A stretch of 57,533 nt of DNA, from positions 1 to 57,533 of the IMG/VR virus record IMGVR_UViG_3300044724_006087; one strand, 5' to 3'. The notes beneath the pieces are model-generated. The model was not told the origin of the DNA, ran no database searches, and saw nothing but the letters and a program-made list of their open reading frames with translations. This DNA is from a virus. Lineage: Duplodnaviria; Caudoviricetes. Every line of letters begins with the position of its first letter. Within the stretch, counting starts at the first letter, position 1. The position numbers and the translations under genes were made by a program. Below, piece after piece: positions 42,816 through 45,800 of the stretch.

Positions 42816-45800
42816 ATGGGAAATCCTTTAAAAATTAAAGAAACAGTTGGTGGTACCTTTCTTGGTTTACAAGAAATGCAAACCACTGAGATGGACTATG
42901 CCGTCCATCAGATTCTAACTGAGTTCTCAACTTCACTAACCGGATCAGGTACTATCAATATAAATGGTGATGGTACATCAATGGGATCCTTTTCGGACAC
43001 CACAAGAACAGGATCAGTAGGCGATCACCCAGTCGACTCTACTGCATTCTCAACATCGACTTATACACTTAAGCAAAATTTAGAATCGGTCGCAGAAACA
43101 TCGATGATCAACCCATTGTTTCTTAATGACAGTGGTTATGCTGCAGAGCATAGTAATAACCTGAATAGTACTCTAATAAGTAGAGCATTATCTAACCTTG
43201 TATCCAACGGCCTTGGATCATATTATCTTTCTGAATCAAACCCCAACACAAGCCTTTATTCAGATAGTGGATATTCTATTTTAGATACTAACAAAGCAGG
43301 TACAACCACATTTAAGTTATGGAGAAAAACAACCGGTGTTTCTGCACCTTCTACTGTTCGTACAGCACAAATTTATAACAACAGTAGTATACAAGAAATG
43401 TCTGATGCAGACATCAAAACATTAGCAGCAAGACTACGTAACCAAATTGTAGCAACTGGAATAGGCCAGTATAAACTATCTGCATCAAATCCAGCTGGTG
43501 CTGGCGAGACATGGATCCAAGTTGGATCAACAGTTACAGATACTAGAAACACAGTATCACAACAAACATACAGTGCAACCTATGAAGGCGTGTTTAATAA
43601 AACATATGCTGGATTATATGAAGGCGTATACAATAAACAATACTTAGCTCAGTATGAAGGCTCATTTGATAAAAATTATACTAAAACTTACCTAGGACAA
43701 TACGAAGCAGTATATCAAAAAGCATATGTTGGTCAATATGGAACAACATTTATTGGCCATTACAATAAACAATACGAAGGTGTTTTTAATAAGCAATATG
43801 AAGGAGCTTTTGAAGGAGTATACACTGGAGTATATGTAAAACAATATCAAGGACAGTATGAAGGAAATTATTTAAAATCATACTTAGGACAGTATGGTCA
43901 ACAATTTGAAGGATCTTTTGATAAACAATATGAAGGGGTCTATGAAGGATATTTTAACGCAGTATATTCAAGACAATTTACAGGTGCTTATACAAAAACA
44001 TACCTAGGTCAATATGAAGGAACATTTGAAGGTGCTTTCAATAAACAATACGAAGGAGTTTTTGAAGGTTACTATAACAAAACATATGAAGGCGTTTATA
44101 CTGGAACATATGTAAAAACTTACTTAGGTGAATATCAAAAAGAATATTCTGGTGAGTATGTAAAAACATATACTGGTGTATATGTAAAACAATATGTTGG
44201 TCAATATGAGGACGTATACCTTAAAACTTATCTTGGCCAATATGATAACGTATATGAAGGTTCTTTTGATAAACAATATGAAGGTGTTTATACAGGACAG
44301 TATACAAAAACATACGTAGGTCAATATACAGGTCAATATACCAAATCATATGTAGGTCAATATGAAGGTCAGTTCGAAGGTGCTTTTGATAAACAATACG
44401 AAGGAATTTACGAAGGATACTATAATAAAGCATATGAAGGAAACTTCTTAGGTCAATACACTAAAGCATATGAAGGTTCTTTTACAAAACAATTTGAAGG
44501 TGCGTTTGAAGGAGTATATGCAGGAGTATATGTCAAACAATATATTGGCCAATACGAAGATGTATATTTAAAAACTTACGTTGGACAATATGGTAGACAA
44601 TTTGAAGGTGCTTTCGATAAACAATACGAAGGATCTTTTGAAGGTTACTATAACAAAACATATGAAGGAATTTATGTAGGCGTATATACAAAACAGTATA
44701 TGGGATTATATACTGGAACTTTCTTAGGACAATATGATAATATCTATGAAGGAACATTTGATAAAGCATACTTAGGAAATTATACTAAAACATATACAGG
44801 ACAATACAGTAGACAATTTGAAGGGGTCTTTACTAAACAGTACGAAGGCAACTATGTAAAGAGTTATGATGGTCAATATGAAGGATTGTTTACAGGTGAC
44901 TTTAGTGGTACTGCAGCATTTACAGGAGTGTATGCAGGAAACTACTCAGGAACATATACAAAAAATTATATAAAAACATACGCTGGATCATATGAAGGAA
45001 CATATGATGGTTCAAGAACCTACACAGGTCAATATGCTGCACAATACCAGAAAGCATATATTGGAAACTGGACAAAGACTTATCTAGGTCAGTACACAAA
45101 ACAATGGACCGGAACAAGAACTTATACAGGACAATACTCTCAAAATTTTGATAAAATTTATCTTGGTATAAACTACACAAGACAATACCTTAAACAATAT
45201 GCTGGCGAAAGAACCTACAATGCTCAATACACTGGCCAATATACAAAAACATATACCGGTGTTTATACTAAATCATATGTAGGTCAATACAGTCAACAGT
45301 TTGAAGGTGCTTTCAATAAACAGTACGAAGGAGTATTTGAAGGCTATTATACAAAAAATTATGAAGGAGTATATCTAGGAAATTACACCAAAGCATATGT
45401 TGGTCAATATGACAGACTGTTTATTAAAACATATATTGGAACGTATCAACAAGCGTATACTGGTAACTATACAAGACATTACCTAAAAGCATACACAGGA
45501 ATTTATTTAAGAAATTTCTTAAAACAATATGTTGGTCAATATACAAAACATTATACTAAAGCATATCAAAAAGCATATCAGAAACAGTGGACAGGTGTTT
45601 ATGAAAGAATCTATTCTGGCCAATATGCAACTAACTACTTAAAGGCATATCAGAAAGCATGGGTAGGTCAATATGACAGAGTATGGACTGGCGTATACAA
45701 TACAAACTATGCTAAGCAATATACTGGTAACTATGATAATCAATTTAGTGGAACCTATACTACAAACTACACTAAACAATATTCTACAAACTACTTACAA

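Follow-up and report, generated by a model that had tools for sequence, protein, structure and literature searches.

The baseplate and tail-fibre block of an uncultured T4-like phage carries a gene whose 2645-aa product is, in our assessment, very probably a discontinuous anchor domain with a giant fold-back insertion, which would act as a spacer fibre on the virion. The gene is an open reading frame of 7.9 kb at 42816-50753 of the window (the whole stretch of 57,533 nucleotides that was analysed). It lies downstream of genes for the baseplate (tube cap, wedge subunits, hub and lysozyme) and of fibre genes, and the products of the adjoining fibre genes end in adhesin or chaperone domains (Pfam GP38 and Peptidase_S74). 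In addition, a 419-aa homologue occupies the equivalent gene position on a 155-kb contig. The features of the locus are as follows.

42816..50753, + strand: the whole open reading frame (2645 aa plus stop), a putative split anchor domain with an inserted fold-back repeat ribbon
42816..43091, + strand: anchor repeat 1 (aa 1-92), two strands, a helix and three further strands, including LQEM and a long hairpin bearing a conserved VG.HP loop (consensus, hhalign, homologue models)
43092..43349, + strand: anchor repeat 2 (aa 93-178), complete and used as the reference unit, with the final hairpin GYSILDTNKAGTTTFKLWRK (sequence comparison, consensus, hhalign)
43350..43556, + strand: anchor repeat 3, N-terminal part (aa 179-247), without its closing strand (hhalign, contacts of the C-terminus)
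43557..46970, + strand: putative outgoing arm (aa 248-1385), made of [Y/F]-x-[G/K]-x repeats with period 4, first of a Glu-rich and then of an Asn/Thr-rich type
46971..47285, + strand: non-periodic middle segment rich in Pro, Gly and aromatic residues (aa about 1386-1490), centred on the insert midpoint, a presumed turn or tip domain
47286..50684, + strand: putative returning arm (aa 1491-2623), with mirrored order of repeat types and phase-shifting irregularities at mirrored positions
50685..50750, + strand: C-terminal closing segment (aa 2624-2645, SGLTIDNTTENISTIKLWLRVA), a candidate returning strand, together with the final strand that repeat 3 lacks (hhalign, conservation, complex score)
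50814..52843, + strand: three overlapping ORFs (178, 290 and 237 aa) downstream of the fibre gene (blastp synteny, Pfam)

The part of the gene at 42816-43568 encodes aa 1-251. Profile comparison showed that aa 1-247 consist of three tandem repeats of ~85 aa each, and the repeat unit is laid out as two strands, a helix, a short strand and a beta-hairpin. With repeat profiles built from 114 family members, the hhalign E values were 6.4e-13 for repeats 1 and 2, 7.4e-13 for repeats 1 and 3, and 2.2e-23 for repeats 2 and 3, and the last of these alignments ends ahead of the final strand. When single sequences were compared, repeats 2 and 3 were similar above chance (z 7.6, 0 of 500 shuffles), the C-terminus and repeat 2 only marginally so (21 of 500 shuffles), and repeat 1 matched the other two no better than chance (423 and 496 of 500 shuffles reached the score). 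Repeat 3 contains the IQEM motif, a helix, the strands GIGQYKL and TWIQVG, and the outgoing strand GSTVTDTRNT.

The initial annotation had described related hairpin motifs in the N-terminal domain, and the translation of 42816-50753 has all of the quoted strings: GSFSDTTRT...TSTYTLKQ at aa 57-87, GYSILDTNKAGTTTFKLWRK at aa 152-171, GSTVTDTRNT at aa 237-246 and TENISTIKLWLRVA at the C-terminus (aa 2632-2645). With family profiles the homology of the repeats is clear (E 6e-13 to 2e-23). The motif [LI]QEM, which had been noted twice, is indeed found at aa 18-22 (LQEMQ) and aa 192-196 (IQEMS). Furthermore, the family consensus extends it to all three repeats (G-L-Q/K-E-M-s-D), and it is degenerate in repeat 2 of the 2645-aa protein.

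The terminal 11 residues, ISTIKLWLRVA, match TTTFKLWRKTT of repeat 2 (hhalign, E 2.3e-5, probability 76%). The C-terminus did not match repeat 1 significantly in hhalign (0.17) and gave no alignment with repeat 3, which is expected if repeat 3 is without that strand. Within the closing segment, W is conserved in 96 and R in 108 of 113 rows, and L in 112 of 113, a count that is partly fixed since the terminal motif was used to select the rows. Furthermore, the repeat-2 HMM covers repeat 3 and the C-terminus as a single match in homologues with little or no insert; in P0092 the match spans 193-272 (HMM positions 6-82 of 88), and P0074 and P0079 behave likewise. The homology of the terminal strand to the last strand of repeat 2 supports the earlier suggestion that a third copy is opened by GSTVTDTRNT and completed by the chain end. 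The alignment, together with the contact list given below, is the basis for the proposed strand order and for the proposed equivalence of repeat 3 to repeat 2. If the chain end supplies the last strand of the third repeat, the ~2,380 residues in between would be one giant loop.

Relatives of the N-terminal three-repeat domain (~250 aa) are numerous, with 296 representatives at E <= 1e-3 and 203 at <= 1e-10 in phmmer. We took the best 150 of the 296 matches, plus the 2645-aa protein and a protein of Phage C48C1, as a set of 152, and the L-W-x-R terminus is present in 114 of them. The other 38 include 19 proteins of <=262 aa, 5 with sequencing-adapter tails, 6 that end inside the repeats and 8 others. 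Among 48 viral loci, many of which are near-duplicates, 38 of the 39 complete ORFs (those ending inside the locus) carry the terminus, and in the single exception, L010, the repeats carry on in another frame. The initial annotation had named the lack of a terminal KLW strand in homologues as a refutation, and homologues in fact keep this strand. The 2645-aa protein itself has the C-terminus G-x-T-[IVL]-x(12)-L-W-x-R-x-A (its end is SGLTIDNTTENISTIKLWLRVA), aromatic-x-Gly/Lys-x repeats, two equal arms and a non-repeat centre. Since the two ends jointly define the family, truncated metagenomic fragments can be recognised.

Insert lengths range from -4 to 3,066 aa with a median of 135, as determined for 111 of the 114 rows carrying the terminus (best 150 of 296 plus two). 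The shortest inserts are about 0, 12, 13, 19 and 20 aa and upward, and so the short- and no-insert homologues whose existence had been anticipated were found. At the other end of the series, there are five other intact giant ORFs (2093-3134 aa) in other viral contigs. A 2093-aa homologue (L005) has an N-domain 74% identical to that of the 2645-aa protein, ends in ...TETISTVKLWLRVA and shows the same mirror symmetry about a central segment. The sole match among 50,697 deposited phage genomes is WJE88074.1 of Phage C48C1 (Kyanoviridae, GenBank OQ984149). This protein of 3347 aa has an N-domain 31% identical, the end ...TETYTLYVRVA and homologous genes downstream. However, it is annotated only as hypothetical, and its own repeats are rich in Arg, Ser, Thr and Tyr and are broken by several globular segments, so that its arms are no simple mirror.

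The family is nameless in all libraries searched. Pfam and PHROGs matched 0 of 60 members, and the one NCBIfam hit in 60 members (BH0509_fam, E 3.1e-4) was taken for chance. Two models were compared with PDB and BFVD by Foldseek, with 0 matches at E <= 0.001, and the top rows (Cas6/RAMP, PCNA and a bovine ultralong antibody) had TM below 0.15 and were dismissed. The PDB profile search gave 0 matches, a word-based search for relatives of 1,454-4,629 aa gave none, tblastn with P0067, a short member typical of the family, found none in the 50,697 phage genomes, and the ESM Atlas returned unnamed viral clusters only. No paper describing the family was found in a literature search confined to the articles themselves, and supplementary virion proteomics tables might list a member. 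The architecture proposed here can be tested, and the family to which it applies is widespread and comprises structural proteins of marine phages.

To model the anchor, residues 1-270 and the last 46 residues were given as separate chains, with three runs and three controls. The score was 0.92-0.93 in the three runs (median 0.93), and that of the best control was 0.01; the runs share at least 73% of contacts, and the pLDDT of the partner is at least 67. The predicted contacts place L2640-R2643 against 216-221 and 232-236 of repeat 3. In the calibration of the tool, 58 of 80 solved complexes attain this mark, as do 2 of 110 mismatched pairs, and these counts are only rough here because the alignments were self-supplied. 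Packing of the C-terminal peptide into the N-domain had been set beforehand as a test that could refute the idea, and the model shows such packing (0.93 vs 0.01). Meanwhile, a natural no-insert homologue of 273 aa was modelled as one compact closed domain (pLDDT 89, pTM 0.88) with a tight last hairpin (251-257/259-271). In the model of a 415-aa homologue, 10-residue block means are 87-98 for residues 1-255 and 385-415 but drop under 50 in the insert at 264-342 and 344-378. These models support the view that both ends of the 2645-aa protein would form one compact domain. The rejoining of the termini, as the initial annotation had put it, is supported by the strand alignment, the kept termini, the two-chain docking and the no-insert homologue model together.

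The two-chain score would be the same if the strand were given to a neighbouring chain, since the prediction uses separate molecules. In a dimer or trimer, the C-terminal strand of one subunit could complete repeat 3 of the next, with chains that still run out and back and an arm pairing that is perhaps intermolecular. Phage fibres are as a rule trimers, as PMC12143355 also states, and the Tyr/Gly face of a two-stranded ribbon would need burial against something. Nevertheless, we consider such a swap unlikely: the no-insert homologue joins both strands by a tight turn in a confident monomer model, and inserts of merely 12-26 aa occur. Links of this length fit an intrachain closure, at least as the likely ancestral state.

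The insert comprises 2,378 aa with an aromatic residue at each fourth position (autocorrelation 0.92 at lag 4), and its composition includes 13% Gly and 0.3% His. Polyproline-II glycine bundles have repeats of period 3. We rejected them for this protein, because the insert has period 4 and 13% Gly. The repeat insert was modelled by AlphaFold with low confidence throughout (pLDDT about 37-46), and thus the evidence on arm-to-arm pairing is the symmetry of the sequence. Six giants, with arms of 876-1,391 aa, have their non-periodic segment no more than ~30 aa away from the midpoint of the insert. In the 2645-aa protein, the positions of irregularities in the two arms add up to 2864-2865 (730+2135, 764+2100, 795+2070) or 2869 (696+2173), and the insert ends add up to 2870 (246+2624); one of the five irregularities per arm is unmirrored (782 and 2122). 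In addition, when blocks of the two arms were compared, the best match was anti-diagonal in 41% of 136 overlapping, hence not independent, windows vs 11% expected, and the maximum share in 2,000 random draws was 22%. The equal arms, mirrored irregularities and anti-diagonal matches speak for the out-and-back topology put forward earlier, and we infer that the outgoing and returning arms may be paired with homologous blocks facing each other in antiparallel orientation.

The usual layout of phage fibres is a different one, in which the N-domain would sit on the virion and the C-terminus would be an independent distal element (receptor-binding tip, chaperone signal or attachment peptide). The adjoining fibre genes, with their C-terminal GP38 and Peptidase_S74 domains, are in line with such a parallel fibre. 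For the present protein we find it very improbable, since the terminal strand has its homologue in the final strand of repeat 2, exactly the one that repeat 3 is without. Furthermore, near-insertless homologues exist and fold as one domain in the model, equal arms are mirrored about a central non-repeat segment in six giants, and the docking score is 0.93 vs 0.01. Finally, it is hardly credible that the giant repetitive ORF is misassembled or no real gene and that its ends resemble each other by chance: although long low-complexity repeats are hard to assemble, the L010 locus is broken by an apparent frameshift and several database proteins have adapter-derived tails, the frame is open over 7.9 kb, five other intact giants (2093-3134 aa) come from other contigs and one of 3347 aa from a deposited phage genome, and the family has 296 representatives at E <= 1e-3 with conserved synteny.

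In the fold-back architecture that we prefer, the sequence shows the hairpin of repeat 3 to be opened. Its first strand, GSTVTDTRNT, is followed directly by the 2,378 residues with Tyr/Gly repeats of period 4, and the partner strand is ISTIKLWLRVA, the last 11 residues of the chain. Judging from the mirror layout, the chain would run outward for ~1,140 residues, turn at the ~100-residue non-repetitive segment (aa 1386-1490) and come back over ~1,135 residues, and the returning arm would pair with the outgoing one. Gene context and other phage fibres suggest that the protein is held on the virion by its conserved anchor and that the ribbon is a spacer of evolvable length; at ~3.3 A per residue, a straight ribbon might extend to no more than about 375 nm. 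Its distal tip, possibly ligand-binding, would be the mid-chain segment, and length could change via matched expansion of both arms. If this topology holds, a small domain accepts 0 to about 3,000 inserted residues in one hairpin, an extreme case of domain insertion, and fibre length evolves with both arms kept matched. It would also be a natural two-stranded beta-ribbon, of interest to protein design. For annotation, the distal and probably host-facing part would lie mid-gene and not at the 3' end.

The gene trio follows the fibre gene in all homologous loci examined (blastp synteny, 9 loci). Its middle ORF (290 aa) is a family-8 glycosyltransferase (Pfam GT8, E 3.4e-6) and has weak matches in PDB, mostly to glycogenin (17 of 19 chains among the matches listed). 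Glycogenin glucosylates tyrosine. PDB profile searches with the 178-aa and 237-aa ORFs gave no usable match, and an adjacent protein is possibly 2-oxoglutarate-oxygenase-like. The conserved glycosyltransferase cassette points toward fibre modification as a possibility. More tentatively, and with less than even chances in our opinion, the fibre may be monomeric, a 'stalk and knob' in which a single chain builds a pseudo-threefold anchor from its three repeats and only one of the three hairpins is drawn into a two-stranded tyrosine-ladder ribbon. If true, it would differ from the trimeric fibres that are known in phages. Its two arms, growing in step from zero to about 1,500 residues apiece, would determine how far it reaches (hundreds of nanometres), and it may be modified post-translation by the always-adjacent enzymes.

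The structure of the T4 gp37 tip was reportedly first described by Bartual et al. in 2010. According to PMC12609058, gp37 has a proximal domain and a thin beta needle built of out-and-back segments, since its chain reverses in a small head at the distal end and comes back to the collar. Three chains together form the needle, a short barrel of six strands held by HxH-iron sites (PMC12609058 and PMC6957217). The 2645-aa protein would resemble gp37 in having a proximal domain and a shaft from out-and-back segments, as far as sequence and models indicate. However, it has a period-4 Tyr/Gly repeat and no HxH ladder (His 0.3% of the insert), its arms have ~1,140 residues each, and its proximal domain is a three-repeat single-chain unit. 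No similarity to the collar, needle or head of gp37 was found with Pfam, PHROG, Foldseek against PDB/BFVD or PDB profiles. A second comparison is the bovine ultralong CDR H3, where a two-stranded beta-ribbon stalk and a knob arise from one hairpin loop of a small beta domain (PMC5994613 and PMC11229553). By analogy, both may be loop insertions that project a tip, but the bovine CDR H3 has up to about 70 residues, in contrast to 2,378 here, and belongs to an immunoglobulin fold of an unrelated organism.

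Every string quoted from the 2645-aa protein in the initial annotation was located in the translated ORF at the place stated there. Across aa 248-2623, there is an aromatic residue at each fourth position (autocorrelation at lags 4 and 12 of 0.92 and 0.88, respectively), and Tyr, Thr, and Gly make up 21%, 14%, and 13% of the residues. The anchor ahead of these repeats was divided into R1 (aa 1-92), R2 (aa 93-178), and R3 (aa 179-247). In the single sequence, R2 and R3 were significantly similar (z 7.6, reached by none of 500 shuffles), and the C-terminus was marginally similar to R2 (21 of 500 shuffles). 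The same shuffle test gave no significance for R1 against R2 or R3. Since the single-sequence repeat evidence is significant for R2-R3 only, relatives were required for the claim of a repeated anchor.

Relatives were found by a phmmer search with residues 1-251 against 1.84 billion representatives, which returned 296 proteins with E <= 1e-3 (203 with E <= 1e-10); the best 150 of the 296 matches were 79-1628 aa long. Among 50,697 deposited phage genomes, the sole match was a 3347-aa hypothetical protein of Phage C48C1 (Kyanoviridae). Furthermore, viral contigs contained five further giants (2093-3134 aa) together with numerous members of 355-613 aa. None of 60 family members matched Pfam or PHROGs, and a weak NCBIfam match in one of the 60 was taken as chance. 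In addition, a PDB profile search found nothing matching the family, Foldseek with two family models gave no matches in PDB and BFVD at E <= 0.001, and a literature search, whose reach did not extend to proteomics tables in supplements, found no paper on the family. Five database proteins (P0003, P0008, P0095, P0122, and P0127) end in peptides resembling translated sequencing adapters (LSLIHI, LLYTSPS); reads left untrimmed in public metagenome assemblies account for these artefactual tails. Six others (P0031, P0063, P0081, P0104, P0113, and P0120) have 80-120 additional residues between R1 and R2, or an N-terminal extension. The extra residues might represent either a fourth repeat that has diverged or sequence inserted into the R1 hairpin.

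In the consensus of 114 members, the pattern R-P-L-K..G-L-Q/K-E-M-s-D-a-E-i, helix, G-x-G-s-Y-x-L, P-x-G-G-T-W, G-x-t-x-t-D-T, turn, T-x-Y-x-L-W-r-K-T occurs three times, and profile-profile comparisons related all of the repeats (E values of 6.4e-13 for R1-R2, 7.4e-13 for R1-R3, and 2.2e-23 for R2-R3). The R2-R3 alignment ends at the D-T-R strand, and R3 has no closing strand ahead of the Tyr repeats. Meanwhile, in a profile built from the last 26 residues, the final 11 (ISTIKLWLRVA) matched the R2 closing strand (TTTFKLWRKTT) with an E value of 2.3e-5 and a probability of 76%, which supports the proposal that the last residues complete a third hairpin copy. The same profile aligned with the equivalent R1 strand without significance (E 0.17), and nothing aligned with R3. 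For members with little or no insert, the R2 HMM covered R3 and the C-terminus together: P0092 gave one continuous match (residues 193-272, HMM positions 6-82 of 88), and the match was likewise unbroken in P0074 and P0079. At the sequence level, these comparisons show an anchor of three repeats with the third hairpin interrupted.

The C-terminal motif L-W-x-R-x-A, or a close variant, was found in 114 of 152 proteins. The remaining 38 comprise 19 of at most 262 aa, 5 with adapter-derived tails, 6 that stop within the repeats, and 8 others, one of which carries the variant LWVKREN; that these are fragments we infer, because contig context is lacking for them. At the terminus of 113 motif-bearing proteins, L was present in 112 (a count partly set by the selection motif), W in 96, and R in 108. 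In the viral loci, many of which are near-duplicates, 39 of 48 ORFs terminate within the locus, 9 run past the contig end, and 38 of the 39 carry the motif. The sole motif-less ORF (L010:10001-11965) ends after 654 aa and its Tyr repeats proceed in another frame, so a frameshift or sequencing error is indicated. N-domain homologues thus keep the terminal KLW strand, as had been anticipated. Insert length, taken for 111 of the 114 proteins as total length minus the anchor (to T246 of the 2645-aa protein) minus 20, ranged from -4 to 3,066 aa; the median was 135, and the 10th and 90th percentiles were 50 and 550. The calculation excludes three rows whose anchors are truncated or short, and its values are misestimated for six rows whose anchor is longer than the 290-aa piece used. 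The predicted homologues with a short insert or none therefore exist, and in the proteins compared both ends are conserved jointly across insert lengths.

The model of a 273-aa member with no insert (mean pLDDT 89, pTM 0.88) has three strand-strand-helix-strand-hairpin units, the final hairpin being 251-257/259-271. In the 415-aa member closest to the 2645-aa protein (46% identity), the 10-residue block means were 87-98 in 1-255 and 385-415, and below 50 in the insert segments 264-342 and 344-378. For the 2645-aa protein, two-chain prediction of residues 1-270 with the last 46 scored 0.92, 0.93, and 0.93 against 0.01, 0.00, and 0.01 for controls (contact agreement at least 73%, partner pLDDT at least 67), a score that is alike for intrachain closure and interchain strand swap. 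Calibration on 80 solved complexes and 110 mismatched pairs had 58 and 2, respectively, reaching the mark; these counts are only approximate here because the alignments were our own. All of these values express the confidence of models and are not measurements. In the model, L2640-R2643 contact 216-221 (GQYKLS) and 232-236 (WIQVG), and residues 2622-2639 lie alongside 239-254. The C-terminal segment also contacts the R1 hairpin (59-75, 85) and the R2 hairpin (155-161), and this contact list suggests that the three anchor hairpins may cluster. In the two-chain model, the C-terminal peptide packs into the N-domain as the initial annotation expected, and the models support one domain formed by the N- and C-terminal ends. 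The original observation is confirmed, the split-anchor interpretation is supported, and we regard the split-domain topology as very probable.

The insert itself agrees with the proposed out-and-back topology. Phase-breaking aromatic spacings lie at 696, 730, 764, 782, and 795 in the first arm and at 2070, 2100, 2122, 2135, and 2173 in the second. The sums 730+2135, 764+2100, and 795+2070 are 2864-2865, 696+2173 is 2869, and the insert ends (246+2624) give 2870; the mirror relation is absent for 782/2122. The sole non-periodic stretch (~1386-1490) is within ~30 residues of the insert midpoint. Such a stretch is likewise within ~30 residues of the midpoint in five other giants (arms of 876 to 1,391 residues), and this roughly holds in more distant members, for example P0115. 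Furthermore, 41% of 136 arm-1 windows of 48 residues (overlapping, hence not independent) had their best arm-2 match at the mirror-image position (sum 2867 +/- 60), whereas 2,000 draws of random placement averaged 11% and never exceeded 22%. Thus, homologous blocks would face each other antiparallel. The bulge-rich blocks at 45003-45215 (aa 730-800) and 49023-49235 (aa 2070-2140) are direct homologues at mirrored distances from the anchor, with the shared pattern G-S/T-R-T-Y ... I/V-N-Y ... G-x-R-T-Y; therefore, each would pair antiparallel with its own copy. This hints that the arms may grow through block copying from one arm to the other.

The gene neighbourhood of the 57.5-kb viral contig (G+C ~34%; completeness estimate 32% in the IMG/VR record) is as follows.

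14812-27925: tail proteins (baseplate tail tube cap, wedge subunits, tail protein, hub and tail lysozyme), from PHROG matches
27934-34854: 2306-aa protein of phrog_358 (function unknown; E 6e-281), with baseplate wedge genes on one side and fibres on the other
Between the 2306-aa protein and the 1188-aa fibre: 1278-aa fibre with C-terminal Peptidase_S74 chaperone domain
39244-42810: 1188-aa fibre with Pfam GP38 adhesin domain fused C-terminally (aa 935-1163, E 9e-13)
42816-50753, plus strand: split-anchor protein, 2645 aa, downstream of the 1278-aa and 1188-aa fibre genes
50814-51350: 178-aa ORF, overlapping the next ORF
51307-52179: 290-aa ORF, family-8 glycosyltransferase (Pfam GT8, E 3.4e-6)
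52130-52843: 237-aa ORF, overlapping the 290-aa ORF

No deposited phage has a gp6-like wedge protein more than 39% identical to the one encoded here, and the contig therefore represents an uncultured T4-like lineage. In T2-like phages, gp38 is a separate adhesin protein. A 2101-aa homologue of the 2306-aa protein occupies the equivalent position in the 155-kb contig behind locus L017.

A fibre role of the 2645-aa protein is plausible. The chain would form an antiparallel ribbon of two arms, tipped distally by the non-repeat segment; the anchor would bind the virion, and the ribbon would determine how far the tip extends. Fibres generally attach to the particle by their constant end; for this reason, and because the gene adjoins baseplate, fibre, and (at L017) neck genes, we would place the anchor on the virion. 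At ~3.3 A per beta-strand residue, 1,140 residues could span up to ~375 nm if straight, which twist or coil would reduce. On one strand face, Tyr alternates with Gly/Lys, and this suggests that Tyr packs over Gly, either from strand to strand or onto a second ribbon.

Among described designs, the gp37-type receptor-binding tip comes nearest. Its chain reverses in the head and runs back to the collar to form a six-stranded needle (PMC12609058), and the tip is trimeric and short, with HxH-iron sites holding the needle (PMC6957217). However, the 2645-aa protein is His-poor (0.3% of the insert), two orders of magnitude longer, and without sequence or fold match to this tip, so it is not a gp37-type member. 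A functional analogy for a ribbon that leaves a small domain through one of its hairpins is the "stalk and knob" of the bovine ultralong CDR H3 (PMC5994613, PMC11229553). The new elements are an anchor of three repeats that is split, homologues whose inserts range naturally from none to ~3,000 residues, the docking of two chains as a test for the 2645-aa protein, and a gene trio conserved downstream. The protein would represent an out-and-back phage fibre carried to an extreme through domain insertion.

The trio of 178-, 290-, and 237-aa ORFs follows the fibre gene in the window and in all nine other loci compared (L001, L004, L006, L007, L011, L015, L017, L030, and L039), for fibres as short as 370 aa and as long as 3347 aa; L007 stops ahead of the third ORF. 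The 290-aa protein has an invariant D-x-D, and a GT8 match was found in 3 of 8 homologues. Its PDB matches were weak (E 0.14-0.8), and 17 of the 19 chains listed are glycogenin. Glycogenin glucosylates tyrosine, and this is suggestive beside a 21%-Tyr protein. For the 237-aa protein, weak Atlas leads (0.87) point to 2OG-oxygenase and Asp/Asn-hydroxylase clusters.
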